Shown: one piece after another, positions 5,829 through 50,405 of the stretch
How positions within the stretch are numbered: position 1 is the stretch's first letter
Layout of the letters: every line of letters starts with the position of its first letter
From: Candidatus Aminicenantes bacterium
GTDB taxonomy: Bacteria > Acidobacteriota > Aminicenantia > Aminicenantales > JAFGBC01
NCBI GenBank assembly: GCA_963702005.1
Contig: OY969696.1
Location: 4,160,001 to 4,224,000 of the forward strand
Direction: 5' to 3'
Length of the DNA: 64,000 nt
The notes under the pieces: model-generated
What the model saw: only the letters and a program-made list of their open reading frames with translations
What the model was told of the DNA's origin: nothing
The model's database searches: none
Made by a program: the position numbers and the translations under genes

Positions 5829-5834
5829 GCCCGG

Positions 5835-22797: not shown

Positions 22798-24144
22798 ATG
22801 ACCGAGACCGAGCAGCGCTTCCCGATGACCTTCTGGACGGCCAACACGATCGAGCTCTTCGAGCGGGCCGCCTACTACGCCATGGCCTCCTTCGTGGTCA
22901 TCTACCTCCATGAGAACCTGGGGATGAGCCCGAGCAAGGCGACCTCCATCAACGGCATCCTCCTCTGGGGCATCATCTATTTCCTGCCCATCCTGTCCGG
23001 CACGCTGGCCGATAAGTTCGGGTTCAAGCGGTCGCTGAGCGTCGCTTTCGTTCTGATCTCGTTCGGCTACCTGATCATGGGAAACCTCCAGCGGCTTTGG
23101 CCCGGGATCATCGGACGGGGCGCGGCCGAGACCGTCGACTTCACGGTGCCGGTCGTCCTGGGCGTGGTCCTGATCGGGATCGGCGGCTCGATCGTCAAGC
23201 CCTGCATCGCCGGCACGGTCCAGAAGACGGCCGGAACGAGGGCGACCCTGGCCTTCGGAATCTTCTACATGGTCATCAACATCGGCTCTATTTCCGGACG
23301 GGGCGTTTCCTACTTCATCCGGACCAGCCTGGGCATCCCGGCCATCTTCAGCTACGTCGCCTCGCTCTTCGCCCTGGCCGGCCTCATCATCACGCTTTTT
23401 ATCTACCGCGAGCCCGAGTTCGTCAGCGACGGCATCAAAGACGGGCAGACGGTCCCCAAGAGGACGTTGGGCCAGGCTCTGCTGGGCATCGTCACCGTAC
23501 TCAGCAACCTCAATTTCCTGTTCCTGATCATCGTCCTCAGCCTGTTCTGGTTTCTCTACATCCAGCTCTACAACCTCATGCCGCTCTTCATGCGCTATGT
23601 CGACCCCAACGCGCCCATGGAGCTATACACCATGGCCAACCCCCTTATGATCGTCTGCTTCCAGCTCCTGATCACCCGCTGGGTCAAGCGCTGGGCTCCG
23701 GTCAAGTCCATCATGCTCGGAGCCGTCGTCGTGACGCTGGGGATGTCCCTGAACGTCCTGCCGACGCTTTTATTCAAAGACATTACCTCAAAGATTCATA
23801 TCGGCATAGCCGTTCCCGTCGCCGGCATTTTCCTCCTCGTCTCGATCGCCTCAATGGCCGTGGGCGAGATGATGGCCTCCCCGCGGGTCTATGAATACAT
23901 CGGCGCCATCGCGCCGCGCGGCCAGGAGGGGCTTTACCTCGGTTACCAGAGCCTGCCGATCGCCCTGGCCAGCATCGTCGGAGGTCGCTTGGGAGGCAAG
24001 CTTTTCGAGCGCTACATCTCGAATCCCGTGAAGGCCGGCTTGCCCCCCGGCATCACGGCCATGTGGCTGATCATCGTCGGGATCGGGGTCGCCTCGATCG
24101 TCGGACTTTCCGTCTACGACCGGCTCGTCGCCAAAGCCAAATAG
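22798..24144 (+). CDS. POT/PTR-like peptide MFS transporter
   Basis: ELFERAAYY (ExxER), KP, FYMVINIGS motifs; GAGGAGG RBS. Confidence 0.88.
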   Translation: MTETEQRFPMTFWTANTIELFERAAYYAMASFVVIYLHENLGMSPSKATSINGILLWGIIYFLPILSGTLADKFGFKRSLSVAFVLISFGYLIMGNLQRLWPGIIGRGAAETVDFTVPVVLGVVLIGIGGSIVKPCIAGTVQKTAGTRATLAFGIFYMVINIGSISGRGVSYFIRTSLGIPAIFSYVASLFALAGLIITLFIYREPEFVSDGIKDGQTVPKRTLGQALLGIVTVLSNLNFLFLIIVLSLFWFLYIQLYNLMPLFMRYVDPNAPMELYTMANPLMIVCFQLLITRWVKRWAPVKSIMLGAVVVTLGMSLNVLPTLLFKDITSKIHIGIAVPVAGIFLLVSIASMAVGEMMASPRVYEYIGAIAPRGQEGLYLGYQSLPIALASIVGGRLGGKLFERYISNPVKAGLPPGITAMWLIIVGIGVASIVGLSVYDRLVAKAK

Positions 24145-24264
24145 AAATAAAGCGGAACGAGCGAGCTACAACAGGCATTCCCCACCGGGGAAAACTGCGG
24201 CTTCAGGCCGCTCCGGGAAGCCCTGAAAATCGGCGGAAGGACAGCACGGACGCGGGCCGGCCCG

Positions 24265-25710
24265 TCACAGGCTGCCGGCGGCTGCCGCGCCCCAGTCCAC
24301 GATGGCTTTGACGGCGGCGTCGATGGCGAGCCGCGTCCCGTTGCCGCCCCGGTTGGCCAGGAAGGAAAAAATATAGTCTCCTCCGTCCGTGCGGACGACG
24401 CCCGAGAGGGCTCGTACGGCCCTGAGATAGCCGGACTTTGCCCGGACCCGGCCGCGGTATGGTTTCTCCCAAAAGTGGTTCTCGATCGTTCCGTCCATCC
24501 CGCCCACGGCCAGCGTGCTCTCAAAAATATTCCAGTCGGGGCGGCCGGCCAGGTGCAGGAGGATTTGGGTCAGGGCCCAAGCGCTTAGGCGGTTGTCCCG
24601 GCTGAGGCCGCTTCCGTCGGAAAGATAAAATTCGCCGTCATCAATCCCCAGCCCGCGCAGATAATCGGACAGGACCTTTCGGCCGCTCTCCCAACTGCCT
24701 CCTTTGCCGTCGAGGCTGGCTTGGGCTCCAAGTCGCTTGAAGAGCGCCTCGGCGGCCAACCCCAGGCTCTCCTTATTGGCCATCATGAGACAATCGCCCA
24801 GCGGCGTCCGGTATTCGGCCAGCGGCCGGAAGTCAGCGTCGTCGGGCATGGGACGCTCCAAGATTTGCCCGGTCATGTGGATCCCCGCTTTGGTCAAACC
24901 ATCCCTGAGCAGATGGCCGAAGAAGAGGGCCGGATTCTCCACGGCGAAGGAGTAGGGGCCAGCCCGGTCACGGCAAGTTCCCGAGACGACGAGCTCGCCG
25001 GGAACTTCGGTCCGATCCAGGCTGATCCGGCTCCGGCCATAAGACCGGGGCCACACATCATTGATCGGATTCAAATAATCGGTCGGCGGCTCAAGGGAGA
25101 TCACGATCCGGCCTCCCTGATTGAGCACGACGATGTCCGCGCAGTTGCCGTTATAATTGAGGCCGCTGACCTCGCAGGCGTATTTTTGATTGAGTTGGTT
25201 CGCCGGCCAGTTGGGATAAATGCGTTGATCGTCGAAGACGGATACGTCGAGGACGATATTCGAAAGAGAGACGACGCCGCTTTCTATAAGGCGGTCGATG
25301 ATGTCCTGCAGAATCGAGGGGCGCCGATGTCCGTTTCGGGCGGCGATCTCGGGATCGCCGAACAGGGGGTCGCCGCTCCCGATGACGACCAGGTCTTCCC
25401 CGCTCAGGCCGACGCGCGTGACGAAGGCGAAATCCGGCCCCAAGATCTCCAGTGCGCCGGCCGTGGTGACGATCTTCATGTTCGAGGCCGGCATGAGAGG
25501 AAGTCGCGGGTTTTTCTCGTAGACGACCTCGCCCGTATCCCGGCGCACGACGCAGGCCGAAAATTGGACTTTTTTCAACCCGGGCCTGTTTAGAATCTCG
25601 TCGATCCGCTTCGACAGATCATTAGGCGCGACGGCTTGGCCGCAGGGCAGCCTCCCCAGACAAAGAGCGAAGGCCAAGATCGGCAAGGCCGCCATCCTCG
25701 TCAACTTCAT
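24265..25710 (-). CDS. dacB: D-alanyl-D-alanine carboxypeptidase/endopeptidase (PBP4, S13)
   Basis: PASNMK (SxxK), GSGDP, DGSGLSRDN, KSG. Confidence 0.92.
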   Translation of the reverse strand: MKLTRMAALPILAFALCLGRLPCGQAVAPNDLSKRIDEILNRPGLKKVQFSACVVRRDTGEVVYEKNPRLPLMPASNMKIVTTAGALEILGPDFAFVTRVGLSGEDLVVIGSGDPLFGDPEIAARNGHRRPSILQDIIDRLIESGVVSLSNIVLDVSVFDDQRIYPNWPANQLNQKYACEVSGLNYNGNCADIVVLNQGGRIVISLEPPTDYLNPINDVWPRSYGRSRISLDRTEVPGELVVSGTCRDRAGPYSFAVENPALFFGHLLRDGLTKAGIHMTGQILERPMPDDADFRPLAEYRTPLGDCLMMANKESLGLAAEALFKRLGAQASLDGKGGSWESGRKVLSDYLRGLGIDDGEFYLSDGSGLSRDNRLSAWALTQILLHLAGRPDWNIFESTLAVGGMDGTIENHFWEKPYRGRVRAKSGYLRAVRALSGVVRTDGGDYIFSFLANRGGNGTRLAIDAAVKAIVDWGAAAAGSL

Positions 25711-25798
25711 GGTCGTTCGGACATCAACGATATATTGACTCGAGTTCCTATTTATAAGGGCGATCTAAAATAAATGTCAAGCGGTTAGGGGAAAGCCG

Positions 25799-27889
25799 CT
25801 AATTCGGCTGCGCTAAGCGGGAAGCGAGGAGCTGGGCCGTATGCCGGACCTCGACCTCGAGGCCCCGCCGGCGGCAGCCGCCCCGGATCTGGAGGAGGCA
25901 GCCCGGGCAGTCGAGGGCGACGGTCGAGGCGCCGGTCTCCTTGATGGCGTCGAGTTTCTCGGCGAGGATGGCCTCGGAGACCTCGGGGTGGTCGGCCGAA
26001 AAGCTCCCGGCGAAGCCGCAGCAGGTCGCCGTCTCGGACATGTCTTTGATCTTAGACCCCGTCGCCGTCTCCAGGACCGACCTCGTCGCCTCCGAAGCCT
26101 TGAGGTAATACTTGTGATGACAGGATTCGTGATAGGTCAGGGCGCCTGGCTCTTTCCTTTTGGAAAGAACACGCGCCAAGCCTTTCTTTTCCATCCGCTC
26201 GACGAACTCGGCGAAGGAGACGACCTTCTCGGCAAGCCCCGCCGCCTCCTCCCCCGCCAGGTCCGGCCCGGCGTGCCCCAGCATGGTCGTGCAGGTCGGA
26301 CAGAGGGTGACGACGGTCTCGCTCGCCTTGATCGCATCGATCAGCCCGCGGTAGGACTTGCGGGCGGACCTTGAAAATCCCCCGTTCGCCGACGGGAATC
26401 CGCAGCAGACGGCCGGGGCGAGGTCGATCCCATATCCGAGCGCTCTAAGGACCCGGGCCGCGTCTATCCCGATCTCGGGATAAAAGTGCTCGACCAAGCA
26501 TCCGGCGAAGATGGTGACCCTGCCCTTGCCGGAGGACGCCGCACCGCCCAGTTCGCTCTTTTTAAAGAGCCTGGTGAAGGTTTTTTTCGCCGGAGCGGGG
26601 ACGGCCCTGAACCGGTCGTATTTCCGAAACGGGAACGGAAACCGTCTCAGGAATCCTTTCTTCCCGGTCAACAAAGGCCGCCCGATTCTGGCGGCCTTGA
26701 ACACGGCCCGATGGACGGGCGGCCGCGCCATCACGCCCTCGAACGCCATCCTCTTCCAGAGGGGCGCGCCCGTCCGCTCGTTGAGCCGCTCCCTGAGGGC
26801 GATTACGAGGTCCGCGATTTTGATCTTGGCCGCGCAGTACTCCTCGCAGCGGTGGCAGCCAAGGCAGAGCCCGGCCATCGCCTTCGAGTTCTTGAGTCCA
26901 TGAACCCAGGCCGTGAGAAGCGCCCCGATTCCTCCCATATAGACGTGGGCGAATTCTTTCCCGCCCAGAACATTGTAGGCGGGACAGACGTTGAGGCAGG
27001 CCGAGCATTTGATGCAGCGCAGAACCTGGCGGAAGACGGGATCGGCCAGGATCTCGGAGCGGTGGTTGTCGAGGATGACGATGGTCCGGGGATGATCCCC
27101 GGCGCCGGCGATGAAAGAGACATAGCTCGTAAAGACCTGGCCGGTCGCGTTCCGGGGCAGGAGCCGGAGGACGAGGGCCGCGTCGGCCATGGTCGGCACG
27201 ACCTTCTCGATCGAGGCCAGGACGACCTGGATGGGCGGGACCGTCGAGACGAGCCGTCCGTTTCCCTCGTTGGTGACGAGCATGACCGCGCCGTTCTCCG
27301 CGACCAGGGCGTTGGCGCCGCTGAAGCCCGCCGGTATCGAGAAGATCTCTCGGCGGAGCTCCTCGCGGGCGATCCGGACCAGCGCCGGGATCTCGTTGGG
27401 CACGGGACGGCCCAAGCGGCGGGCGAATGTCCGGGCAACATCGGCCCGGGTCAGGTGGATGGCCGGCATGACCATGTGGGTGGGCGCTTCGGCCTCGAGC
27501 TGGACGATCCACTCGCCCAGGTCGGTCTCGCGCGGCTCGATCTTCCGACCGATCAGGAAATCGTTGAGATGCGTCTCCTCTCCGACCATGGACTTGCTCT
27601 TGGCGACCTTGCCCGCGCTGTTCCGGCGGAGGACCTCGGCGATCGCCAGGTTCGCTTCATCGCCGTCCCGGACCCGGAGGACGGTGTTCCCGCGCTTGCG
27701 GGCCTCGGCCTCGAACAGGGCGAGCAGCTCTTCGTTTCTCTCCAGGCTCCGGTCCTTCATCTCGGCCAGCAGAGTCCGCAGCTCCTCGAAATCCTCCCCC
27801 ATTAGGGCGTTCCGGCGCTTGACGAGGTAGCTCCGCGAGAATTCGGCCAAGACGGATTGGAGGTGAGGGTCGATCCGGGTCCGGCTCAT
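25799..27889 (-). CDS. LutB/LldF-like LUD + ferredoxin protein fused to two CCG (LutA-like) domains
   Basis: KSKSMVGEE, ETDLGEWI, NEGNGR, CIKCSACLNVC, CLGCHRCEEYC, CCGF twice, HESCH, CPGC. Confidence 0.9.
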   Translation of the reverse strand: MSRTRIDPHLQSVLAEFSRSYLVKRRNALMGEDFEELRTLLAEMKDRSLERNEELLALFEAEARKRGNTVLRVRDGDEANLAIAEVLRRNSAGKVAKSKSMVGEETHLNDFLIGRKIEPRETDLGEWIVQLEAEAPTHMVMPAIHLTRADVARTFARRLGRPVPNEIPALVRIAREELRREIFSIPAGFSGANALVAENGAVMLVTNEGNGRLVSTVPPIQVVLASIEKVVPTMADAALVLRLLPRNATGQVFTSYVSFIAGAGDHPRTIVILDNHRSEILADPVFRQVLRCIKCSACLNVCPAYNVLGGKEFAHVYMGGIGALLTAWVHGLKNSKAMAGLCLGCHRCEEYCAAKIKIADLVIALRERLNERTGAPLWKRMAFEGVMARPPVHRAVFKAARIGRPLLTGKKGFLRRFPFPFRKYDRFRAVPAPAKKTFTRLFKKSELGGAASSGKGRVTIFAGCLVEHFYPEIGIDAARVLRALGYGIDLAPAVCCGFPSANGGFSRSARKSYRGLIDAIKASETVVTLCPTCTTMLGHAGPDLAGEEAAGLAEKVVSFAEFVERMEKKGLARVLSKRKEPGALTYHESCHHKYYLKASEATRSVLETATGSKIKDMSETATCCGFAGSFSADHPEVSEAILAEKLDAIKETGASTVALDCPGCLLQIRGGCRRRGLEVEVRHTAQLLASRLAQPN

Positions 27890-28467
27890 GCCTTCTTCCT
27901 GATTTTTCCGTCGACAAGGACGATGACCAGACGGCCCGGGCCGTGGACGCCGATCGAAAGGACGTTCTCGATATCGGCGGTCCGGCTCGGACCGGTGACC
28001 AACGAAACCTGTCCGAACCCGGACGGCCGCGCCAGGTGCTTTATGATGGCGGGAAGAGTCTCCTCGAGGCGGGCGGCAATCGCGCCGGAATCGAGGACGC
28101 CAACGCAGACGGGCGGCAAGGTCCAGACGTTTTTATCGGCGTCGCTTCGATCGAGGTGGACAAGCGTCCCCGTTTCCGCGATTCCGTGATGGGCGAATAC
28201 GATTCCGGCCTCGGCCGCCGCTATTTCTTCGGCCTTGTTGCCCCGGACGATGCGCGCCTTGGAGCGAGGAGGGACAAAGGCCCGGGCGTCGGACGCAACG
28301 GCCAAAATCTTGGCGCCGAGATCGTCGAGGATTCCGGAGATGATTTTCCGGGCGCCGGCGGCCGTTTCCGCCCTTAGAACCTCGGCGCCGGCCGCCTCGG
28401 CCCGTTCTCGGAAGAGCCCGGCGAGCCGCGCCCCTCCGCTCGCGCCGGCCGTTCGCCGCTTCACCAT
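27886..28467 (-). CDS. LutC/YkgG-family LUD domain protein
   Basis: GIAETGT and TGPSRTADIE...GVHGP signature. Confidence 0.92.
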   Translation of the reverse strand: MVKRRTAGASGGARLAGLFRERAEAAGAEVLRAETAAGARKIISGILDDLGAKILAVASDARAFVPPRSKARIVRGNKAEEIAAAEAGIVFAHHGIAETGTLVHLDRSDADKNVWTLPPVCVGVLDSGAIAARLEETLPAIIKHLARPSGFGQVSLVTGPSRTADIENVLSIGVHGPGRLVIVLVDGKIRKKA

Positions 28468-29783
28468 CGCCGGGCCTTCTTGGGCTCCATCTTGCGGAGG
28501 TCCAGCCCCCGCTCGAGCGCGCCGATCCGGTACAGGCAGATCTCGCGGACGGACGAGGGATGGTGAAGGACTTCGCTCAGCGATTGGGCGCCCACCGCCC
28601 AGACGCCGCCTCCCCGGACGATGACGACCTTGTATTCGTGGAGCTTGGCGATGAACGTCGCGTCGTCGACTCCGGGCGGGAGGACGGGGATGACGAGATA
28701 GAGGAAGCCGCCCTCGGCGTCGATCGGGATGACCCGGTCGGCGGGCTCCGTTTCTCCCGGATAGCGGTAGTGGGCCAGGGCTTCGGCTTCGGGCTGGTAG
28801 CAGTGCATGGCGGTTTGAAAGTCCGTTTCGGCGTAGATGAGCTTATGGAAGCGAAGCTCCCCGGGATCGCCGGCCTCCGGCCCGATCGGAAGCCTGCGCA
28901 GCGGGCCGCCCAGGTCGCGCGGCATGGCGCCCTTCCCCGCGTAGAGAAGATGGTCGACGCCGCGGGCCGAGATGGAGCCGGTGTGGAAGGGCGAAAGCCG
29001 CGATTCGAACATCCGGTTCCCGGCCTTGCGAAACTCCTTGAGGATCTCCTCCTCATCGGGAAAATCGCAGACGTCGTCGCCCTCGATCTCGTAGGGAACG
29101 GGCGGATGCCGGAAATGCGCGGCCGGGTCGCTCCGGATCTCCGCCCTCAGCTTTTCGACATCGACGCCGAGCTTGCGGAGGAGCCGGACGACGTAACCGG
29201 AGTTGTTGGCAATGCCCAGAATGAAGAAGGCCTCCTGCAGGGTCCGCCCCCGGGCGAACGTCCCGTGGGTCTGGACGACCGTCGCGGGATGATCGGCCAG
29301 GCGCTTGGGGACGGTCTCGATGACCTCGAACGAGCCGCTCGGGACGGCCAGCCAGTCGACCGGGACGACGCCCCCCAGATGATACCAGCCGAGGGGATCG
29401 ACCGGGACGAAGGCGGGCGGCTTGTTGGGCTTGTCGGCGTCGTCGAAGGTCGCGATGATGAGGTCCTTGGTGTGGGCGTGGAACGAGGCCCGGACGCCCG
29501 CGATGGCCAGAATCCGGGCATGGATGTCCGTCTCGGACGAAGCCTTGTAGTAGCCGTAGTCGGTCTCGCCGGGCGAGAGAAAGCAGATCTGGCTCGGTTC
29601 GAGGTCGCCCTTCTGGGAGCCGGTCGCAGTGATGACGATTTTCTCGCGGCCGGCCCCGTCCCGCCACTTGACGACCATGTTCCCGCTGTGGCTGTCCTGG
29701 ATGTCGACGAGGAGGCTGGCCCTCCCCACAGTCTGGAAGAGCTTGAGAAGCTCCTCGCTCGCTTTCCAATCCTTTCCGATCAT
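28461..29783 (-). CDS. Tandem two-domain class II aldolase/adducin-family protein
   Basis: Domain 1: SHSGN, ITATGS, ASSETDIH, HAH, THG. Domain 2: HTGSISAR, FHKLIY, MHCY, PIDAEG, VIVRGGG. True start MIGKDW overlaps the AOR stop (ATGA). Confidence 0.85.
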   Translation of the reverse strand: MIGKDWKASEELLKLFQTVGRASLLVDIQDSHSGNMVVKWRDGAGREKIVITATGSQKGDLEPSQICFLSPGETDYGYYKASSETDIHARILAIAGVRASFHAHTKDLIIATFDDADKPNKPPAFVPVDPLGWYHLGGVVPVDWLAVPSGSFEVIETVPKRLADHPATVVQTHGTFARGRTLQEAFFILGIANNSGYVVRLLRKLGVDVEKLRAEIRSDPAAHFRHPPVPYEIEGDDVCDFPDEEEILKEFRKAGNRMFESRLSPFHTGSISARGVDHLLYAGKGAMPRDLGGPLRRLPIGPEAGDPGELRFHKLIYAETDFQTAMHCYQPEAEALAHYRYPGETEPADRVIPIDAEGGFLYLVIPVLPPGVDDATFIAKLHEYKVVIVRGGGVWAVGAQSLSEVLHHPSSVREICLYRIGALERGLDLRKMEPKKARRW

Positions 29784-31639
29784 CGCGTCCGCTCCTCGAT
29801 CGCGAGCGCGCGAAGGAGGGCCGGGCCGGGCCGGCCGTCCGCATCCCACTCGCGCACGCGGTAGTAATCGCGCCGCATCCTGTCCATGGCCTCCCGCGAG
29901 ACGGTCCGCTCCTGGCCGTCGATGACGACGGGGATCGAGGCGAAGCGCTCGGGCAGGGCGTCGTCGGCCGGCGTCAATCCCGCTTCGATGTTGAAGAGCC
30001 GCTCGAGGGCGGCCACCCGGTTTTCGACTTCCTCGAGCCGGGCCATTGAGAAGTCGAGGCCGGTCGCCCCGCTGGCCATCCGCGACCAGGGATCGGCCGC
30101 GAACGCGAACCCGGTGAAGCGGCACACCCCCAAGCTGTCCTGGAGGATGCCCAGGTTCTGCATGTTGCGGATGGCGATCGGCGACTGGAGGAGGCTGAAG
30201 CGGGGAATCTCCTTGGCCCCGCCGAAAAAGGCGAGCGAAACGGCGTAGCCGCCGCGCAGGTGGCAGGCGCCGGTCGGAGAGGTCATATAGCCAAGCGCTT
30301 GAGTGAGGGAGGCGCGGGGATCGTAGCCGGGGATTTCGAGCCCCTTGACGGACATCGAAAGCTCCGGGCGTCCGCAGGACGCCGCCAGCCGGCGCGATCC
30401 CTCGGCGAGCCGAGCCCCGATCCCCTCGCGGCGCGCCGTGAGCCGGGCCAGCGTCTCGAGCGAGGAGGCGCTCCCAAAGCGCAGGTCGAGTCCGCCGGCG
30501 TCCGCCGGCGTGAGGAGGCCTTTCTCGAAAAGCTCCATGGCGCAGGCGACCGTCCCGCCGAAGGAGATGGTATCCATGCCCAATTCGTTGCAGCGATAAT
30601 TGGCCCTGGTGATGGCGGGAAGGTCGTAGACGTCGCAGACCGGGCCCATCAGGACCGTCGTCTCGTACTCGGGGCCCTCGCCCTTCTCGTCGCAGGCTCC
30701 GCCCTCGCCGTCCCGGAGGCGGGTATGCCGCTGGCAGCCGATCGGACAGGCGTGACAGGCGCCGGGGCGCTCGAGCAGCGTCTTGGCGAGAGTCTCGCCC
30801 GAGATTCTCTCCAGGTCCTCCTCACGGTGGCTGCAGTCCAGGAAGTTCCGGTGGGGAAGCATCCGGATGAGGTCGATGAGCTCGACCAGGCCCAAGGTTC
30901 CCAGTTCGCGGAGGAGGCGTTTGGTGATGGGCGCCTGTTTCATGAGGTAGAAGGCCTGGTCCAACCCGGCCTGAAAGCGGTCCTTGTCCTTGATCGCGAT
31001 CTTGGCCTTGCCCCGTACCCGGACGGCTTTGAGGTTCTTGGAGCCCCAGACGGCGCCCGGGCCCGAGCGTCCGTAGGTCCGGTTCATGTCGTTGACGACG
31101 GCCGCGATCCGGACCAGGTTTTCGCCGGCCGGGCCGATGCAGAGGACCTTGGGGCGGAGGCCGGGCTCGGCGCCCTCGCTCAGCCTGTCGGTCGTCGCGT
31201 GGACGTCGAGGCCCCAGAGATGGGAGGCCGGGGCGATTTGACAGCCTTGGGGCGAGATGTCGAGCATAACCGGCCCGGAGGCGCGGCCCTTGACGACGAG
31301 GACGTCGTATCCGGTCGCTTTAAAGGCGCTGGCCCAGGTCCCTCCCGAGTTCGCGCTCCCGATGAACCCGGTCAGGGGCGATTTGAAGACCATGTGGCCG
31401 CGGCAGGAGGTCGGGGCGTTCGTCCCGACCAGCGGCGATGTCGCCAGGACGACGACGTTCTCCGGGCCGAGCGGGTCGCAGGCGGGATCGACGCCGTCGT
31501 AGAACAGGCGGGTGGCGAGGCCGCGGCCGCCCAGGTAGCGCTCGACGAGGGCGGGTTCGAGGGGGAGCGTCCGAGCCTCGCCACAGGAGAGATCGACCTC
31601 GAGGATCTTCCCGTGGAAGCCGAACGGATTTTCGCCCAT
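29780..31639 (-). CDS. Aldehyde:ferredoxin oxidoreductase (tungsten/molybdopterin AOR family)
   Basis: YLGGRG, KSPLTG, IGPAGENLV, GSKNLKA, CHACPIGC, EGPEYET, GMDTIS, GACH. Confidence 0.93.
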   Translation of the reverse strand: MGENPFGFHGKILEVDLSCGEARTLPLEPALVERYLGGRGLATRLFYDGVDPACDPLGPENVVVLATSPLVGTNAPTSCRGHMVFKSPLTGFIGSANSGGTWASAFKATGYDVLVVKGRASGPVMLDISPQGCQIAPASHLWGLDVHATTDRLSEGAEPGLRPKVLCIGPAGENLVRIAAVVNDMNRTYGRSGPGAVWGSKNLKAVRVRGKAKIAIKDKDRFQAGLDQAFYLMKQAPITKRLLRELGTLGLVELIDLIRMLPHRNFLDCSHREEDLERISGETLAKTLLERPGACHACPIGCQRHTRLRDGEGGACDEKGEGPEYETTVLMGPVCDVYDLPAITRANYRCNELGMDTISFGGTVACAMELFEKGLLTPADAGGLDLRFGSASSLETLARLTARREGIGARLAEGSRRLAASCGRPELSMSVKGLEIPGYDPRASLTQALGYMTSPTGACHLRGGYAVSLAFFGGAKEIPRFSLLQSPIAIRNMQNLGILQDSLGVCRFTGFAFAADPWSRMASGATGLDFSMARLEEVENRVAALERLFNIEAGLTPADDALPERFASIPVVIDGQERTVSREAMDRMRRDYYRVREWDADGRPGPALLRALAIEERTR

Positions 31640-31726
31640 TCCGATGTATTAATATATAGGATTAAGGAGGTGTCCGACAAGCTATCCGTTTCGCCGCCGC
31701 GGGACGAGCGAAGCGCGCGGATGAAT

Positions 31727-32803
31727 TCACTCGAGGCCGCGCTTGTGCTTATAGACGTCCTTCAAGTATGCCGCCACTCGCCTGCCAAAAGCCTTTTCGG
31801 CCTGGCGGCGCGCCCTGACATCTTGTTTCAAGGCCAGAAACCTCAACTCCCGGCGCAGCTTGAAATAGCTCTCCAGCCGACCGGCGTCGAGGGCTCCGGA
31901 CGCTACGGCCGCCCGCACCGCGCAGCCCGGCTCGTTGTCATGGCGGCAGTCGGCGAACCGGCAGCGAGCCGCCAGTTTTTCGATGTCGTCAAAGGACCGT
32001 CCTAGGCCGTCGTCGTCCGTCCAGAGCTGAAGCTCGCGCATCCCGGGCGTGTCGATGAGCAAAGCCCCGTTGGGAAGAGCGACGAGCTCGCGGGCCGTCG
32101 TCGTGTGCCTGCCCCGGCCGTCGCCATCGATGACGGGAGCGGTCCGAAGACGCTCCTCTCCGAGGAGGCGGTTGATCAGCGTCGACTTTCCCACGCCCGA
32201 AGATCCCAGGAGGGCCACCGTCTTCCGGGGGATAAGGTAAGGTTGAAGGGACTCCAAACGGCCACCGGCAACGGCGCTCGTCGCGACGACCGGCGTCCCG
32301 GGCGCGATCTTTTCCACTTCGAGGACGACGTCCTCCAGGTCGCCCCGCAGGTCGGCTTTGTTGAGCACGACGACCGGCGAGGCTCCGCTGTCCCAAGCGG
32401 TCGTCAGATAGCGCTCGATGCGGCGCGGGCTGAAGTCGCCGTCGAGCCCGCTGACGAGAAACACGGTGTCGATGTTGGCCGCCACAACCTGGGCCTCGAC
32501 GACATCCCCGGCGACCTTGCGTCGGAAGGCGCTGCGTCGCGGGAGGACGCCATGGATAAGCGCCGGACCGGCGACTCCCGGTTCCGCGACGACCCAATCG
32601 CCGACAACGGGGTAATCGGCACGGCCGGCCGCGAGATGACGGAACCGTCCCGAGACATCGCCCGCCCATTCTCCCCCTGGGACGGCTAATATGGATCGGT
32701 TCCGATGCTGCTTCACGACGCGGGCCGGGACAAGGCCCAGCTCGGCGTGGGGCGCGAATTGCGCCGCAAAATAGTCATCCCATCCGAAATCTATTAAATC
32801 CAT
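31727..32803 (-). CDS. rsgA: Ribosome small subunit-dependent GTPase A
   Basis: VGDWV, NKAD, GSSGVGKST, GRHTTT, DTPGMRE, CRFADCRHDNEPGC zinc site. Confidence 0.93.
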   Translation of the reverse strand: MDLIDFGWDDYFAAQFAPHAELGLVPARVVKQHRNRSILAVPGGEWAGDVSGRFRHLAAGRADYPVVGDWVVAEPGVAGPALIHGVLPRRSAFRRKVAGDVVEAQVVAANIDTVFLVSGLDGDFSPRRIERYLTTAWDSGASPVVVLNKADLRGDLEDVVLEVEKIAPGTPVVATSAVAGGRLESLQPYLIPRKTVALLGSSGVGKSTLINRLLGEERLRTAPVIDGDGRGRHTTTARELVALPNGALLIDTPGMRELQLWTDDDGLGRSFDDIEKLAARCRFADCRHDNEPGCAVRAAVASGALDAGRLESYFKLRRELRFLALKQDVRARRQAEKAFGRRVAAYLKDVYKHKRGLE

Positions 32804-32823
32804 CGCCTCATAATCTCCGTCAT

Positions 32824-32966
32824 GTCACCCGTTCGCCGACGCGAAGCCCCCCCTTTCAAAGCGGGGATGAGAAGCGAGGCTCAGGGTTAACCCTGACCAA
32901 GCCCCGCCTTTGCAGTACCCATGGCTTCCATGGGTGCCGGCCTTCAGGCCGGGGAGTCGAGGGTTT
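32824..32966 (-). repeat. About 140-bp multi-hairpin intergenic element (MITE/REP-like), copy A
   Basis: Reverse complement aligns along its whole length with 41218-41361 and with the scaffold of 54371-54578. Confidence 0.88.
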
Positions 32967-33139
32967 GACTCGATTCTCCCGGGCCGTTGGGATAGGCAAG
33001 CGCCGAATTCCGCGCGACCGGGATAAAGATCGGAAGAGTGGATTCGATCCCGAGGAGGGACGTCGCTGCCGATGGATTAAAGCCTAGCCGCCGTGGACTT
33101 CAGATTCGAGGGCCGATGCGCCGGCATCGACCGGTATTG

Positions 33140-33168
33140 AGTATACCGGCTCCGGCCTACGTTGGCAA
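33140..33168 (-). promoter_or_regulatory. Sigma70-type promoter upstream of rsgA
   Basis: TTGCCA-N17-TATACT on the minus strand. Confidence 0.55.
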
Positions 33169-33192
33169 GGATTTTTCAGGATGTCGACCGGG

Positions 33193-33471
33193 TCAACCGC
33201 CGATGAGGAAGGGGAGGATGGCAACAGAGTCGCCCGCGGCAAGAGGCGTAGCGAGCCCCTGCAGCGATAGGACATTCATGCCGCCCTTCATCACTATAAC
33301 CTGGGGGTTGAGGGTCCCGTCCGGCTTAAAAATTTCCTTGCGGCGTTCGGGAGTATCGCAGAGCGCCTCGAGCAGGTCCGCGATCCGCGCAGGCTCGGCG
33401 AGTTCGACGTCTTTTTCTTTCGCGCCAAAAAGCGGTTTCAGCTGGGCCAGAAACCGGACGCGAACCGTCAT
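33193..33471 (-). CDS. moaD: MoaD/ThiS-family sulfur carrier
   Basis: MTVRVRFLA start, ubiquitin-like size of 92 aa, C-terminal GG; ATGA overlap with the upstream gene. Confidence 0.88.
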   Translation of the reverse strand: MTVRVRFLAQLKPLFGAKEKDVELAEPARIADLLEALCDTPERRKEIFKPDGTLNPQVIVMKGGMNVLSLQGLATPLAAGDSVAILPFLIGG

Positions 33472-34235
33472 TTCGACCTCCCCGCCCCCTCCGCTCCCCT
33501 GCCGCCGCAGACCGGACAATTCGGGTTCCGCTTGACCTCGACTTCGTCCCAGGAGGCCAGACGGCCGTCCCAAAACAGGAGCCGTCCCGCCGCCAGGGTC
33601 TCGATCCCAGCCAGCAACTTGACGACTTCCCCGGCCTGGATGGAACCGACAACGCCGCAGGTAACCCCGAGGATCGGGAAACCGGACCGGGCCGGGACCG
33701 GGGGGAAAACGCATTTGAGGCAGGCCGTCTTTCCCGGAAGGACGGTCATGACCTGGCCGCTCATGTCGATGACGGCGCCGTGGACGAGCGGAATCCCGCG
33801 CCCGACCGCCGCCTCGTTGAGGACGAAGCGCGTCTCGAAATTGTCCAGGGCGTCCACGGCCGCGTCGCACCCTTCCAGAAGACCCGAGGCGTTCGCGGGC
33901 TCGATCCGCCCCCGAACGGCCTCGATCCGGACGTAAGGATTCATGTTCCGGACCCGGAGCCCGGCGCGGACCGCCTTGGGCTTCCCCTCGTCGAGCTCCG
34001 TGTACAGAACCTGGCGGTTGAGGTTGTCCAGCTTGACGATATCCTGGTCGTAGACGCGAATGGTCCCGACGCCGGCGGCCGCCAAGTAAGTCAGGATCGA
34101 AGAACCCAACCCGCCCGCGCCCGCCACGAATACGGTCGCGGCCTTGAGCCGTTCCTGGCCGCCGGGCCCGAGGACTTCGTCCTGGCGCCGGTAGCGCTCC
34201 CGTTCTTTCGCCCGAAACTCGACCTTGTCTTTCAT
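33468..34235 (-). CDS. moeB: MoeB/ThiF adenylyltransferase
   Basis: ERYRRQ, GAGGLGS, NLNRQ, DNFETR, CLKC and CPVC zinc motifs. Confidence 0.9.
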   Translation of the reverse strand: MKDKVEFRAKERERYRRQDEVLGPGGQERLKAATVFVAGAGGLGSSILTYLAAAGVGTIRVYDQDIVKLDNLNRQVLYTELDEGKPKAVRAGLRVRNMNPYVRIEAVRGRIEPANASGLLEGCDAAVDALDNFETRFVLNEAAVGRGIPLVHGAVIDMSGQVMTVLPGKTACLKCVFPPVPARSGFPILGVTCGVVGSIQAGEVVKLLAGIETLAAGRLLFWDGRLASWDEVEVKRNPNCPVCGGRGAEGAGRSK

Positions 34236-34753
34236 CGGGATATCTCCGCGAGGATACGCTTTTCGAAATCCGCTGCATCGAAACGGACGACTAGGGGCCG
34301 CTTTTGCAGCCGTCCCAGGAGATCCTCAAGAATGGACTCTCGCACCACGAGGAGTACACGCCGGCCCGGCTCCTCCAGCGAGGGTTCGAGCTCCGGCCAG
34401 ACGCCCTTTCCTTCGAGCTCGGCCGGCCCGACTTCGTCCACGACGAGAAAATCCCCGGGCCCGCTCTTCTTTACGATTTCGCGAGCCCGCTCCAATCCCG
34501 CCGGGACGAACCTGAAGGAGCCGACGTCCAAGCCTCGTCGCTTCTTTTCGCCGTCCGATTTCCTTCTTAACAAAGGCGCGGCCTCGCCCGTCCCGATGAC
34601 CTCGAGATCATAGCCGGTGATCCCTTCTCCGTTCCTGACACTCGGGCTCAAGTATCCGGATAAAGGCACGTGCATCGCGGCCAGTGTTTCAACAAGCGCC
34701 CGGACCCGAGTCGTCTTCCCGGCGTGCAGCGGCCCCTCAATTATTATTACCAA
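34232..34753 (-). CDS. NTPase_1/DUF2478-like P-loop NTPase
   Basis: GPLHAGKT Walker A, VVDEVGPAELEGKG Walker B; coupled to moeB. Confidence 0.82.
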   Translation of the reverse strand: MVIIIEGPLHAGKTTRVRALVETLAAMHVPLSGYLSPSVRNGEGITGYDLEVIGTGEAAPLLRRKSDGEKKRRGLDVGSFRFVPAGLERAREIVKKSGPGDFLVVDEVGPAELEGKGVWPELEPSLEEPGRRVLLVVRESILEDLLGRLQKRPLVVRFDAADFEKRILAEISR

Positions 34754-34815
34754 TCTACTATCGCTTTGTATCCTTCAAATGCAGGCAACTTAGATTCAAG
34801 GTCGGCGAGGAACCA

Positions 34816-34848
34816 GGCCACGAAGAGGGTCGTCTGAGGGCCGGAGCG
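34816..34848. repeat. 33-bp dispersed intergenic repeat, copy 1
   Basis: GGCCACGAAGAGGGTCGTCTGAGGGCCGGAGCG; 30/33 identical to 56391-56423. Confidence 0.7.
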
Positions 34849-34881
34849 GGCACGGTCCGCCGAGCCTCATGGCCCGAGTCC

Positions 34882-37026: not shown

Positions 37027-37556
37027 TCCTCATCTCCTTCCAGGGGAAACGTCATCTTCACTCCATCGGGCCCGGTGAGCTCGATACTCTTCGGGGTGAT
37101 CGAGCCGACCTTGTACCAATCGGCAACGATGTCCCCGGTTTGGACGGCCAGGGCTTGCCCCTGGACGAGAGCCAAACCGATGATGGACTTCGGGGACTGT
37201 ACGAACCCGATGTATCTCAGGCTCAGCGAAGGGAGGGCCTCGTTCGCGTTCGCCGGCGTTTTTCCGCTCCGCGTCCCCGGATTCGCCCGGCCGGGCGCAC
37301 CGGAGGCCGGGATCTTCCCCGGTCCGGCCGGGATGGAGGCGACGTCCTCGCCTTCGTCTTCGGCGCTGGGGGAGAAGATGCTGCGTTTGGGCGGCACGAG
37401 CTCTTTGGCCGCCCTGAACAGGAGGTCCATGCAGACGAAGCTTTTAGGCCGGACTTCCGCGCTTTGGGTGACCGGCGGCTTATCCTGGCCGACAACGATC
37501 GCCAGGGCCGCGGCCGCCGACGCCAACAGGATCACTCCGAGCTTAGCTGCGCGCAT
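37023..37556 (-). CDS. PilP/GspC-like pilus or secretion accessory protein
   Basis: Position in operon, N-terminal hydrophobic segment, LRYIGFV...GDIV..YKVGSI beta domain. Confidence 0.65.
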   Translation of the reverse strand: MRAAKLGVILLASAAAALAIVVGQDKPPVTQSAEVRPKSFVCMDLLFRAAKELVPPKRSIFSPSAEDEGEDVASIPAGPGKIPASGAPGRANPGTRSGKTPANANEALPSLSLRYIGFVQSPKSIIGLALVQGQALAVQTGDIVADWYKVGSITPKSIELTGPDGVKMTFPLEGDEE

Positions 37557-43877: not shown

Positions 43878-44115
43878 TCTTTCGATGTCCGATTCTAAGA
43901 ATAAGAACGTCCGGGCCTAATAATGCATAAATAATTCTATATTCCCCAACTCGGAATTTGCGAAGCCCGGCAAAAGAACCCTTCAAGACCGGATTAAGCT
44001 CGGGTTTCTTTGAAAGCTCCTGTTCAATTCGGTCGAGGATTCGGCCCGCTTCGGATTTAGACAGCTTTTTAAGGTCGCGCTGGACAGACTTTTTGTAGAC
44101 GATATTAAAGGCCAA
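43855..44115 (-). CDS. RelE/ParE-family toxin
   Basis: 86 aa, basic, LKGSFAGLRKFRVGEYRIIY...IGHRKNVY. Confidence 0.92.
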   Translation of the reverse strand: MAFNIVYKKSVQRDLKKLSKSEAGRILDRIEQELSKKPELNPVLKGSFAGLRKFRVGEYRIIYALLGPDVLILRIGHRKNVYRSEI

Positions 44116-44323
44116 GGGACTTTCTCAGCTCTTTGCCAGAAATGATGGGATCGCTCTTATCATGGAGACGGTCCAGCGCCACCTGAAGATCTGCGAATTC
44201 CTCGATATAAGACTCTAAAGCCTTCTGGATGATGAAAGAACGCGGCCGCTCCGTCTCCTTGGCGATGGAGTCGAGTTGTTCCACGAGTTCTTTAGAAAGC
44301 CTCACCGATATCGCTGTATTCAT
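44105..44323 (-). CDS. Ribbon-helix-helix (CopG/RelB-like) antitoxin
   Basis: ISVRLSKELVEQLDSIAKETERPRSFIIQKALESY; acidic tail; overlaps the toxin start. Confidence 0.9.
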   Translation of the reverse strand: MNTAISVRLSKELVEQLDSIAKETERPRSFIIQKALESYIEEFADLQVALDRLHDKSDPIISGKELRKSLGL

Positions 44324-44343
44324 TTAGCATCTCCAATAATTGG

Positions 44344-44380
44344 TGTATTACAATGTAAACAACAAGGGTTGATTTGTCAA
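44344..44380 (-). promoter_or_regulatory. Toxin-antitoxin promoter with overlapping inverted-repeat operator
   Basis: TTGACA-N17-TACATT; TTACA-A-TGTAA palindrome across the -10 box. Confidence 0.65.
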
Positions 44381-44458
44381 CCGATATTTCCGGACTTATT
44401 AGAAAGGGCAGGCCGAGAACGGTCGGGGAGAATTCCAGAAAATGAATCGCTTCAGATC

Positions 44459-46132: not shown

Positions 46133-46155
46133 TTTGTTCTCCATATGCACGGAAC

Positions 46156-48705: not shown

Positions 48706-48732
48706 GGCCCCTCCTTGCCTTATCCAGAACAT

Positions 48733-50382: not shown

Positions 50383-50405
50383 GTTGCCTTCCACCCAAAA
50401 TCTTC

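Follow-up and report, generated by a model that had tools for sequence, protein, structure and literature searches.

A tungsten-type aldehyde oxidoreductase and a tandem class II aldolase in Aminicenantes: a candidate lactaldehyde branch of L-rhamnose/L-fucose catabolism

Results

The operon and its gene products

In the window (the whole stretch of DNA analysed, 64,000 nucleotides of a Candidatus Aminicenantes genome), four consecutive minus-strand genes encode a tungsten-type aldehyde oxidoreductase (AOR), a tandem aldolase (ALD2), a LutC-like protein and an LdhH-type LutB–LutA fusion (Table 1). A sequence-only reading had described four genes with overlapping stop and start codons, and the ORF coordinates as well as all three overlaps are confirmed: the genes are translationally coupled, with 4-nt start/stop overlaps at the AOR/ALD2 (cgATGAtc) and LutC/LdhH (gcATGAgc) junctions and a 7-nt overlap at the ALD2/LutC junction (cgATGGTGAag). 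ALD2 starts at the ATG at 29783 and has 440 amino acids, the listed GTG ORF to 30125 being an over-extension into AOR. The candidate promoter of the same reading does exist as a motif in the sole intergenic gap, but by itself the pattern is not beyond chance, since 2 promoter-type sites occur in 11 kb versus 1.2 ± 1.1 in shuffles. Upstream neighbours are RsgA, the ThiS-like and ThiF-like proteins, NTPase_1 and a secretin; PBP4 and MFS lie downstream.

Table 1. Features of the operon and its upstream region (positions in the window)
Feature	Position	Strand	Remarks
ThiF/MoeB-like adenylyltransferase	33468..34235	-	PF00899, 227.7 bits
ThiS/MoaD-like protein, 92 aa, ends GG ('WorX' of Class I WORs)	33193..33471	-	PF02597
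Promoter-like site TTGTCG-N18-TATATT	31651..31680	-	11 nt ahead of the AOR ATG; pattern match only
AOR, putative WorL-only (Class I WOR type) tungsten/molybdenum-pterin aldehyde:ferredoxin oxidoreductase, 619 aa	29780..31639	-	AFOR_N + AFOR_C
ALD2 N-terminal domain, ~residues 1–222	29118..29783	-	class II aldolase fold, full metal and catalytic set
ALD2 C-terminal domain, ~residues 223–440 + stop	28461..29117	-	degenerate, aldolase-like; tail ...MEPKKARRW conserved
LutC-like LUD-domain protein, 193 aa	27886..28467	-	PF02589, 86.5 bits
LdhH-type LutB–LutA fusion, 696 aa	25799..27889	-	LUD + 4Fe-4S dicluster + 2 CCG (Pfam)

AOR matches PF02730 (241 bits) and PF01314 (379 bits), and its closest solved structure is the Pyrococcus furiosus AOR (PfAOR; 1aor, E 3.7e-130). 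Residues C295, C298, C302 and C506 align with the cluster cysteines of PfAOR, and T248, E326, Y439 and H460 with its Thr243, Glu313, Tyr427 and His448; all are invariant in 17 orthologues. The [4Fe-4S] cysteines and these four residues of PfAOR are given as WOR family residues in the cited part of PMC13328260. Domains and residues thus place AOR in the AOR/WOR family, the use of tungsten rather than molybdenum and of ferredoxin being putative. Among the flanking genes examined, none adjoining AOR encodes WorS, WorN, WorABC, a ferredoxin or an FAD/NAD subunit, which bears out the earlier remark that AOR has no stand-alone ferredoxin or NAD-linked subunit next to it, and 32 of the 53 loci whose sequence extends at least 3 kb upstream carry a homologue of the ThiS-like protein ahead of AOR. 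This neighbourhood fits a Class I WOR (WorL only, with an optional ThiS-like WorX), as in P. furiosus AOR, which is likewise WorL-only, has a ThiS-like WorX nearby and keeps the pterin and cluster residues. The ThiF/MoeB-like protein is presumed to be the partner of the ThiS-like protein in sulfur transfer to the pterin cofactor.

ALD2 matches PF00596 (89.5 bits) in two stretches, so that the description 'double class II aldolase' holds for the domain count, but only the N-terminal half is catalytically equipped. The AF2 model of this half (pLDDT 92.7) finds Thermus thermophilus FucA as its top Foldseek match (2fk5, TMt 0.83), and it holds three histidine metal ligands (H102, H104, H173), a catalytic E84 and a phosphate loop (H32-S-G-N35); we take H102/H104/H173 and E84 to be equivalent to FucA His92/94/155 and Glu73. 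Across 32 sequences with identities as low as 26%, no substitution occurs at H32-S33-G34-N35, T52, S82, E84, H102, H104, H173 or G174. The C-terminal domain has H-C-Y at the position of the HxH motif and R-G-G-G at that of the third histidine, and the positions of the lost metal residues vary among relatives; judged by these residues, only the N-terminal half is catalytic. ALD2 reaches no NCBIfam cut-off, the top model being PRK08660 'aldolase' (118 of 203 bits). ALD2 matches RhaD and FucA models at E 1e-3 to 1e-4 (NF002963, 19.7 of 170 bits; NF040649, 18.9 of 250; PRK08087, 17.2 of 264), and because these scores lie under the equivalog cut-offs, ALD2 is classed as RhaD/FucA-like in action and not as a member. 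The PF00596 superfamily also includes epimerases, dehydratases and decarboxylases that share the same metal site, so that the residues by themselves are no proof of aldol cleavage. The C-terminal Trp tail follows AOR adjacency inside the order but not outside it, as 25 of 29 distant ALD2 members are AOR-adjacent despite having no Trp tail.

The LutABC/LldEFG domain set is complete, with LUD in LutC, LUD and a 4Fe-4S dicluster in LutB and two CCG domains in LutA, LutB and LutA being fused. LdhH matches the L-lactate dehydrogenase large subunit model NF045670 over profile positions 12–706 of 706; at 727.1 bits it stays under the equivalog cut-off of 800 bits. The proteins therefore share their domain set with Desulfovibrio-type LdhH/LutC and LutABC/LldEFG and differ in this score.

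The AOR–ALD2 pair is the conserved unit

AOR and ALD2 are adjacent in 16/20 and 60/62 related (GTDB) loci, two sets that share genomes, and in 30/36 distant metagenome loci (24 AOR-ALD2, 6 ALD2-AOR); here as in all counts, related genomes are non-independent samples. Adjacency is kept down to ~27% ALD2 identity and through reversed gene order, and nearly the whole order carries the pair, often amid housekeeping genes. The AOR orthologue, which 41 of 61 relatives have, is found solely beside ALD2, and at E ≤ 1e-100 none of the 10 relatives that lack a full ALD2 has it, save for 42–44% paralogues in G018: the two genes are lost together. Lut genes lie beside the pair in 20 of 61 loci. Hence, of the AOR, aldolase and LUD neighbourhood that the sequence-only reading had proposed to search for, the conserved unit is AOR with ALD2, while LutC–LdhH is an add-on in about one-third of loci. 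Orthologues of LdhH, grouped at 51% identity or more, occur in 19 of 61 genomes, 18 of which have RhaA; in 17 they lie beside ALD2 or an ALD2 remnant, and G018 and G003 keep LutC–LdhH without AOR or ALD2.

Complex prediction, which covered the C-terminal half of ALD2 (222–440) with AOR and used alignments made in this analysis, gave an ipSAE of 0.84 (runs 0.81, 0.84 and 0.86), compared with 0.00 for the best of 3 controls; a mark of this level is attained by 58/80 solved complexes and by 2/110 mismatched pairs. The runs share at least 83% of contacts, with a partner pLDDT of at least 78. The AOR interface segment 469–496 hardly varies among AORs that are linked to ALD2, whereas the corresponding segment of the genome's three AOR paralogues is unrelated. 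The degenerate C-domain of ALD2 thus probably docks on AOR.

Rhamnose/fucose genes and microcompartments

A rhamnulokinase, RhaA, FucI-like or rhamnosidase gene adjoins the pair in 11/80 GTDB and 18/80 distant metagenome loci (29/160), the commonest extra neighbour being a kinase that makes ketose-1-phosphates; neighbour kinases score 467–543 bits on TIGR02627 (rhamnulokinase). Examples are RhaB-ALD2-AOR-LutB (L149), ALD2-AOR-RhaB (L150), AOR-ALD2-kinase-FucI-like (L185) and RhaA next to AOR-ALD2-LutA-LutB-LutC (L209). Sugar genes adjoin the pair neither in the window nor in any of the 20 G-loci. The genome itself carries rhaA, rhaB and a rhamnosidase gene, in a cluster that lacks an aldolase, with RhaA 1.47 Mb from the operon, and a FucI-like enzyme is also encoded elsewhere. 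Besides ALD2, its one PF00596 gene is AraD (323 bits), which adjoins ribulokinase. RhaA is present in 34/41 genomes with the pair versus 4/15 without; six of the 41 pair-bearing relatives (G007, G015, G027, G035, G042 and G052; 92–96% completeness) have neither RhaA nor a strong FucI match. ALD2 is not the sole candidate aldolase everywhere, because nine relatives have a third, RhaD-length PF00596 gene, and five of these nine also carry the pair.

Microcompartment (BMC) shell genes occur in exactly three of 61 relatives (G016, G018 and G030), and these are precisely the RhaA-positive relatives that have no AOR–ALD2; the genome under study has no PF00936 shell-gene match. The neighbours of the class II aldolase in the family-scanned BMC locus of G030 include an acylating aldehyde dehydrogenase and an acetate kinase, and in G016 and G018 a class II aldolase lies ~3 kb from the shell genes. 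The cited part of PMC4207490 describes, for PVM-like fucose/rhamnose microcompartments, a class II aldolase as signature enzyme and lactaldehyde as sequestered intermediate. By analogy, the BMC loci of these relatives are PVM-like fucose/rhamnose microcompartments.

Discussion

Gene structure, residue conservation, gene neighbourhoods and complex prediction, all of them computational, make it probable that the operon is a ferredoxin-linked version of the lower, lactaldehyde branch of L-rhamnose/L-fucose catabolism. The ketose-1-phosphate would come from RhaA/RhaB or the FucI-like enzyme, encoded elsewhere in the genome; the metal-dependent N-domain of ALD2 would cleave L-rhamnulose-1-P and/or L-fuculose-1-P to DHAP and L-lactaldehyde, the WorL-only tungsten-type AOR would convert lactaldehyde to L-lactate while reducing ferredoxin and, given their family membership, LutC and the LutB–LutA fusion would convert lactate to pyruvate. 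The sequence-only reading had suggested this route, in which a metallo-AOR takes over from AldA, and it gains support from the sugar-linked loci, from the recurrence of Lut genes beside the pair in varied orders and fusion states, and from a genome in which rhaA, rhaB and rhamnosidase are accompanied by no aldolase other than AraD and ALD2. A WOR oxidises lactaldehyde in vitro, according to the cited part of PMC11725836. If the dead C-domain binds AOR as predicted, the aldolase would be a tungstoenzyme subunit that hands over its reactive aldehyde directly; that it is a stoichiometric subunit of a WorL-only enzyme, with lactaldehyde passing from the zinc straight to the tungsten site, is a tentative proposal, somewhat short of probable.

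Other substrates would imply another role. In a DHAP-shunt salvage, ALD2 would cleave 5-deoxyribulose-1-P or methylthioribulose-1-P, formed via MtnP and MtnA from radical-SAM by-products, and AOR would oxidise acetaldehyde or methylthioacetaldehyde. The genome does encode MtnA (453 bits; cut-off 271) and MTAP (287; cut-off 275) with no MtnB, RuBisCO-like protein or further aldolase candidate, the N-half of ALD2 matches both the MtnB-like aq_1979 structure 2irp and, at 4e-10, the MtnB model TIGR03328, and the near-universality of the pair in the order, often among housekeeping genes, would suit such a role. However, MtnA is present in 61/61 relatives, including all those without ALD2 and three without any PF00596 match, and it lies beside the pair in 0/180 loci, compared with 29 for Rha/Fuc genes. 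Clustering of the Ald2/DrdA type, with mtnA/mtnP or with the drd kinase and isomerase genes, is not seen either, MtnA being 3.9 Mb and MTAP 0.6 Mb away, and acetaldehyde leaves unexplained both the coupled lactate-oxidising genes and the replacement by a fucose/rhamnose-type microcompartment. We regard this salvage as unlikely, although ALD2 may have a side activity on either substrate. It is also unlikely that AOR is a general aldehyde-detoxifying enzyme with an unrelated neighbour, or that ALD2 handles another phosphosugar without aldol cleavage, as an epimerase, dehydratase or decarboxylase. PfAOR-like enzymes are broad-range in the cited text of PMC13328260, ALD2 reaches no equivalog cut-off, and six pair-bearing relatives have neither RhaA nor FucI; on the other side stand an adjacency that endures sequence divergence and gene-order inversion, the joint loss of both genes, the predicted binding of ALD2 to AOR, and the ketose-1-phosphate-making kinase as commonest extra neighbour.

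LutC–LdhH could instead be the electron outlet of AOR, which would pass electrons from its [4Fe-4S] cluster via the LutB clusters to the CCG domains; the sequence-only reading had likewise considered LutB as a possible electron acceptor. The absence of a ferredoxin gene beside AOR, the coupling across all four genes and the near-exclusive location of the LdhH orthologue group beside ALD2 would fit this proposal, but about two-thirds of AOR–ALD2 loci have no Lut genes, two relatives keep LutC–LdhH without AOR or ALD2, LdhH is a full-length match to a Desulfovibrio-type L-lactate dehydrogenase model, and WorL-only WORs use free ferredoxin according to the cited part of PMC13328260, which makes an outlet very unlikely. 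Hardly credible is a biosynthetic direction, in which reduced ferredoxin would drive the reduction of an acid by AOR, and ALD2 would join the aldehyde to DHAP: AORs are able to reduce acids (PMC9295118, in the part cited) and aldolases are reversible, but the neighbours, namely rhamnosidase, isomerase, kinase and lactate oxidation, are catabolic.

The lactaldehyde route favoured here has the chemistry of Escherichia coli FucA/RhaD, AldA and LldD, which take 6-deoxyketose-1-P to DHAP and L-lactaldehyde, then to lactate and pyruvate; it would differ by the tandem two-domain ALD2, by AOR in place of AldA and by a LutABC-type enzyme in place of the flavoenzyme LldD. The earlier reading knew of no described pathway with this combination. 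Its logic is, in fact, published: as reported in the cited part of PMC3870299, RhaEW (Bacillus subtilis YuxG; Chloroflexus aurantiacus) is NAD-dependent and occurs with lldEFG in some RhaR regulons. In it, a distant relative of class II aldolases is tied to the enzyme for the oxidation of L-lactaldehyde to L-lactate, as proposed for AOR–ALD2, and in some genomes LldEFG (= LutABC) carries the route on to pyruvate, as LutC–LdhH would. The novelty lies in the tungsten-type enzyme and its aldolase partner: in RhaEW the NAD-dependent dehydrogenase domain, RhaW, is part of one polypeptide, whereas AOR would be a separate, ferredoxin-linked enzyme, Pfam finds no RhaW-like or other dehydrogenase domain in ALD2, and the covalent link of RhaEW is here a predicted non-covalent contact via the dead second aldolase domain. 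AOR–ALD2 may serve as an NAD-independent aldolase/oxidase module. In DmpFG and BphI–BphJ, a TIM-barrel metal-dependent pyruvate aldolase is bound to an acylating NAD dehydrogenase and the aldehyde is handed over; AOR–ALD2 would work likewise, with hypothetical channelling and unrelated folds.

In the cited part of PMC13328260, a defined physiological role is known for five of 92 WOR clades only, that proposed for PfAOR is the detoxification of amino-acid-derived aldehydes, and no aldolase partner is described for Class I WORs, the word 'aldolase' occurring 0 times in the main text. The locus offers a testable role for one more clade, lactaldehyde oxidation in deoxyhexose catabolism, with a named predicted partner. 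An aldolase subunit would be of a type missing from the five-class WOR scheme as presented there, and central sugar catabolism would give the clade a defined role, one that yields reduced ferredoxin, hence H2 or energy conservation. If correct, the route would also fill a gap left by metabolic reconstructions of Aminicenantes, the 'missing RhaD / missing lactaldehyde enzyme'. These bacteria are abundant in anoxic sediments and wetlands. Their rhamnose/fucose fermentation balance would shift to reduced ferredoxin and lactate or pyruvate instead of 1,2-propanediol, on which other anaerobes spend the lactaldehyde step as NADH. An aldolase–AOR complex would be a shell-free alternative to the fucose/rhamnose microcompartment: both routes have a class II aldolase and a lactaldehyde intermediate, but PVM and PVM-like BMCs contain the aldehyde by a protein shell and a CoA-acylating aldehyde dehydrogenase, whereas any containment by AOR–ALD2 would be by an enzyme–enzyme complex.

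A conserved AOR–ALD2 pair

The sequence-only reading described four genes with overlapping stop and start codons, and this is borne out by the coordinates of the open reading frames, all on the minus strand, and by the three junctions, at which start and stop overlap as ATGA, ATGGTGA and ATGA. They encode a tungsten/molybdenum-pterin aldehyde:ferredoxin oxidoreductase (AOR), a tandem class II aldolase (ALD2) and two proteins of the lactate-oxidizing family, LutC and LdhH. A longer GTG open reading frame of ALD2, up to 30125, is an over-extension within AOR. The families of the neighbouring genes confirm that AOR has no adjoining ferredoxin or NAD-linked subunit; genes for WorS-like or flavoprotein subunits are likewise missing next to it. 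Among proteins and contigs that bear a name, the nearest carry the label Candidatus Aminicenantes.

Features of the operon and its surroundings (window positions), and microcompartment loci in three relatives
Feature	Position	Strand	Description
LutB–LutA fusion (LdhH)	25799–27889	minus	696 aa; LUD_dom, 4Fe-4S dicluster and two CCG domains
LutC	27886–28467	minus	193 aa; Pfam LUD_dom
ALD2	28461–29783	minus	440 aa from ATG at 29783; Pfam Aldolase_II, two stretches
AOR	29780–31639	minus	619 aa; Pfam AFOR_N and AFOR_C
Promoter-like TTGTCG-N18-TATATT	31680–31651	minus	sole intergenic gap of the region
RsgA-type ribosome-biogenesis GTPase	31727–32803	minus	separates ThiS-like gene from AOR
ThiS/MoaD-like gene	33193–33471		92 aa, GG terminus; upstream of AOR
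ThiF-like gene	33468–34235		upstream of AOR
NTPase_1 gene	34232–34753		upstream of AOR
Secretin gene	34882–37026	minus	TPR repeats and C-terminal cohesin domain
PVM-like locus, G016	C11 ~805–812 kb		five BMC-domain matches
PVM-like locus, G018	C4 ~110–117 kb		five BMC-domain matches
PVM-like locus, G030	C221 (L129)		five BMC-domain matches

ALD2 is present in 52 of the 61 genomes of the same order, and AOR directly adjoins it in 16 of 20 loci from those genomes and in 60 of the 62 GTDB loci that extend 1.9 kb or more upstream, two samples that have genomes in common and are not independent. An AOR orthologue (at least 57% identity; 45–47% in one genus) occurs exclusively beside ALD2 in 41 of the 61 genomes, and in five further ones the contig stops at ALD2. 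At E ≤ 1e-100 the orthologue is absent from the ten genomes that have no full ALD2, the exception being paralogues of 42–44% identity in the relative G018. One family (L036, L037, L040) has lost AOR, and there the next gene, for an Nramp-like transporter, overlaps the 3' end of a tail-less ALD2. Of the AOR–aldolase–LUD neighbourhood suggested from the sequence, the AOR–ALD2 adjacency is conserved, but LutC-LdhH lies 3' of ALD2 in only 6 of 20 order loci and 20 of 61 GTDB loci; downstream of ALD2 the remaining loci carry unrelated genes, such as those for HD-GYP proteins, a tRNA synthetase or a peptidase.

LdhH orthologues, grouped at 51% identity or more, occur in 19 of the 61 genomes, and in 17 they adjoin ALD2 or an ALD2 remnant; of the other two, one has the locus split across contig ends, and G018 has no ALD2. 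In the relative G003 (C1; locus L126, 8843–8911) an intact LutC-LdhH is directly preceded by 23 codons left over from the ALD2 C-terminus (91% identical). They are the scar of a deletion in which AOR and the bulk of ALD2 were lost; G003 lacks RhaA as well. Many genomes of the order also carry, elsewhere than at ALD2, a member of a second LdhH paralogue group with 33–39% identity to that of the window (e.g. G056:C1:3965153–3967081); the window's genome has none at E ≤ 1e-30.

Metagenome contigs were searched with an alignment of distant ALD2 family members only. Among the distant loci that extend 1.9 kb or more on each flank, AOR is directly adjacent in 30 of 36, in the order AOR-ALD2 in 24 and ALD2-AOR in 6, and six of the 30 carry Lut genes, with LutA, LutB and LutC unfused and variously arranged. 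The pairing therefore outlasts divergence of ALD2 to about 27% identity, a reversed gene order and changes in the fusion state of the Lut genes.

ALD2 and AOR as proteins

The AlphaFold2 model of ALD2 (pLDDT 92.7, pTM 0.93) consists of two class II aldolase folds in tandem, both of which match FucA-type structures (best 2fk5, TMt 0.83). The N-terminal half keeps H32-S-G-N35, T52, S82, E84, H102, H104, H173 and G174 without exception in 32 members, down to 26% identity; by equivalence to E. coli FucA we take these residues to comprise the phosphate loop, the three metal-binding His and the catalytic Glu. In the C-terminal half both the HxH pair and the third His are gone, and the sole invariant residues there are D355, E357 and G393. 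The description of ALD2 as a double aldolase thus holds for the folds but not for the catalytic residues, whose set is complete in the N-terminal half only. The family is small (among 1.84 billion sequences, 246 cluster representatives match at E ≤ 1e-3, of which 39 pass E ≤ 1e-30), and ALD2 scores under every NCBIfam cut-off, the best being PRK08660 'aldolase' (118 of 203 bits). Since single-domain relatives of ~190 aa align with either half, an origin of ALD2 by tandem duplication would fit. In L127 (G031, 4794–6179) and in the 'Saccharicenans'-labelled loci L077, L081, L084, L089, L092 and L093, the interdomain linker of ALD2 holds ~22 additional residues, which brings the gene to 1386 nt.

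The nearest solved structure to AOR is that of Pyrococcus furiosus AOR (PfAOR; 1aor, E 3.7e-130), followed by FOR (8e-70), WOR5 (4e-51) and BamB (3e-38). The C-x2-C-x3-C...C cluster ligands are kept, and T248, E326, Y439 and H460 align with PfAOR Thr243, Glu313, Tyr427 and His448, which are described as residues of aldehyde-oxidizing tungsten-containing oxidoreductases (WORs) (PMC13328260). Under the scheme of the same paper AOR belongs to Class I, the WorL-only WORs, and has a ThiS-like 'WorX' close by. LdhH aligns over its full length with the model of the Desulfovibrio-type L-lactate dehydrogenase large subunit, at 727 bits, below the 800-bit cut-off.

When AOR (1–619) was co-folded with the degenerate half of ALD2 (222–440), with 17 rows of paired orthologues in the alignment of either chain, ipSAE was 0.81, 0.84 and 0.86, and 0.00 in three controls; among solved complexes 58 of 80 attain this mark, among mismatched pairs 2 of 110, counts that are only a rough guide with custom alignments. 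Between runs 83% or more of the contacts recur, and the partner has a pLDDT of at least 78. The sequence matches to structures include no solved complex of the AOR and aldolase families, so that recall of such a complex by the model is unlikely. This model of AOR with the non-catalytic half supports a predicted binding of AOR by the C-terminal half of ALD2. The predicted AOR interface includes residues 469–496, which are near-invariant among ALD2-linked AORs, unrelated in the genome's three AOR paralogues and divergent from PfAOR. At the C-terminus of ALD2 an [M/F/Y]-E-P motif is shared nearby, and within the order a tail ending in Trp tracks AOR adjacency (exceptions L095 and L116). As an AOR docking signal the Trp tail fails in distant members, 25 of 29 without it still being AOR-adjacent.

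Probable substrate of the pair

The RhaA, RhaB, rhamnosidase, FucI-like protein and MtnA of the window's genome were compared by tblastn with all ALD2 loci. The earlier proposal, that a ketose 1-phosphate yields lactaldehyde for a metallo-AOR, gains from the Rha or Fuc genes that adjoin the pair in 11 of 80 GTDB and 18 of 80 metagenome loci; they adjoin it in 0 of the 20 loci taken from the 61 order genomes. Arrangements include RhaB-ALD2-AOR-LutB on a single strand (L149), ALD2-AOR-RhaB (L150), RhaB-ALD2-AOR (L154), AOR-ALD2-kinase-FucI-like (L185), RhaA divergent from AOR-ALD2-LutA-LutB-LutC (L209), and AOR-ALD2 convergent with RhaA-RhaB, then rhamnosidase (L099). The four locus kinases scored reach 467–543 bits on rhamnulokinase TIGR02627 (cut-off 528) versus 122–138 on fuculokinase. 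The window's genome has a rhamnosidase-RhaA-RhaB cluster, without an aldolase, at 2.71–2.72 Mb, a FucI-like gene at 1.78 Mb and two PF00596 genes only, ALD2 and an AraD (323 bits, cut-off 257) that adjoins ribulokinase. Of the genomes that have the pair, 34 of 41 carry RhaA, versus 4 of 15 of those that do not; it is present in 18 of the 19 that carry the LdhH orthologue. Six relatives with the pair have neither RhaA nor a strong FucI match, a misfit with lactaldehyde formation from these sugars. A second misfit is that ALD2, though the only spare class II aldolase of the window's genome, is not so in nine relatives, which have a third PF00596 gene of RhaD-like length (59–74 bits, ~670 nt spanned) not adjoining RhaA (e.g. 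G002:C246:352–1023, G060:C5:863764–864435, G017:C1:1604213–1604881).

The RhaA-positive genomes without AOR and ALD2 (G016, G018 and G030) are exactly the 3 of 61 that have microcompartment shell genes. In the G030 locus, the one scanned for families, a CoA-acylating aldehyde dehydrogenase (PRK15398, 533 bits) and an acetate kinase adjoin an N-terminally extended class II aldolase; the class II aldolase of G016 and of G018 lies ~3 kb from the shell genes. The composition of the G030 locus is that of the PVM-like fucose/rhamnose microcompartment, in which the sequestered intermediate is described as lactaldehyde (PMC4207490). One of the three swaps is intrageneric (G030 versus G004, G012 and G060). 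We read microcompartment and AOR–ALD2 as non-orthologous replacements for the same two steps. Since LutC-LdhH is retained in G018, lactate would fit as the product of both routes.

We infer all catalytic steps of the following route from family membership and context. RhaA and RhaB, or a FucI-like isomerase and a kinase, would make a 6-deoxyketose 1-phosphate, which the N-terminal domain of ALD2 would split into DHAP and L-lactaldehyde; AOR, held by the C-terminal domain, would oxidize lactaldehyde to L-lactate, reducing ferredoxin, and LutC-LdhH, where present, would take lactate to pyruvate. Lactaldehyde is reported to be oxidized in vitro by E. limosum WOR1 (PMC11725836).

The main alternative is that the pair serves a DHAP shunt, as the window's genome has MtnA and MTAP without MtnB or a RuBisCO-like protein. 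However, MtnA is universal, occurring even where ALD2 was lost or PF00596 genes are missing altogether, and adjoins the pair in none of the 180 ALD2 loci compared by tblastn, and acetaldehyde would leave both the Lut genes and the microcompartment swap unexplained. Because MtnA is in all genomes, the phylogenetic profile of ALD2 against MtnA is uninformative as a discriminator. ALD2 may nevertheless have a side activity on DHAP-shunt substrates. With respect to the electrons released by AOR in the lactaldehyde route, we do not favour the earlier suggestion that LutB accepts them: two thirds of the pairs have no Lut genes, and Lut genes persist where AOR is absent.

Relation to described pathways

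The sequence-only reading did not know this combination as a described pathway, which needs qualifying because the pathway logic is in print: RhaEW is an aldolase fused to a lactaldehyde dehydrogenase, NAD-dependent unlike AOR, and lldEFG is part of some rha regulons, with pyruvate as end product (PMC3870299). What appears to be new here, and was not found in print by literature search, is a tungsten-type AOR in the lactaldehyde role, a tandem aldolase whose dead domain would serve for docking, and a WOR with an aldolase partner. The main text of the WOR classification paper does not contain 'aldolase', 'adducin' or 'MoaD'; its supplementary neighbourhoods of 4,064 WorL may list such neighbours (PMC13328260).

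Surroundings of the operon

The promoter-like site noted earlier just before AOR is at its place, but its pattern alone is within chance (2 sites in 11 kb versus 1.2 ± 1.1 in shuffled sequence). Neither a riboswitch nor another RNA family of Rfam was found upstream of AOR or ThiS, cmscan of 24000–37500 at E ≤ 1 giving one chance-level sRNA match; intrinsic terminators number 7 versus 9.6 ± 3.2 expected, with none 3' of LdhH. Downstream of the operon a PBP4-type carboxypeptidase gene lies behind its own TTGACA...TATAAA element. A sigma-70-like site (10/12 match, 33168–33140) lies ~340 nt 5' of the RsgA start. The order secretin-NTPase_1-(ThiS)-AOR-ALD2 is syntenic throughout the order, and in most relatives the ThiS-like gene is directly 5' of AOR, without an intervening RsgA. 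Further along the window, 44001–52000 has a G+C content of 0.48–0.53, versus 0.58–0.67 elsewhere in the window, and may be a foreign island.
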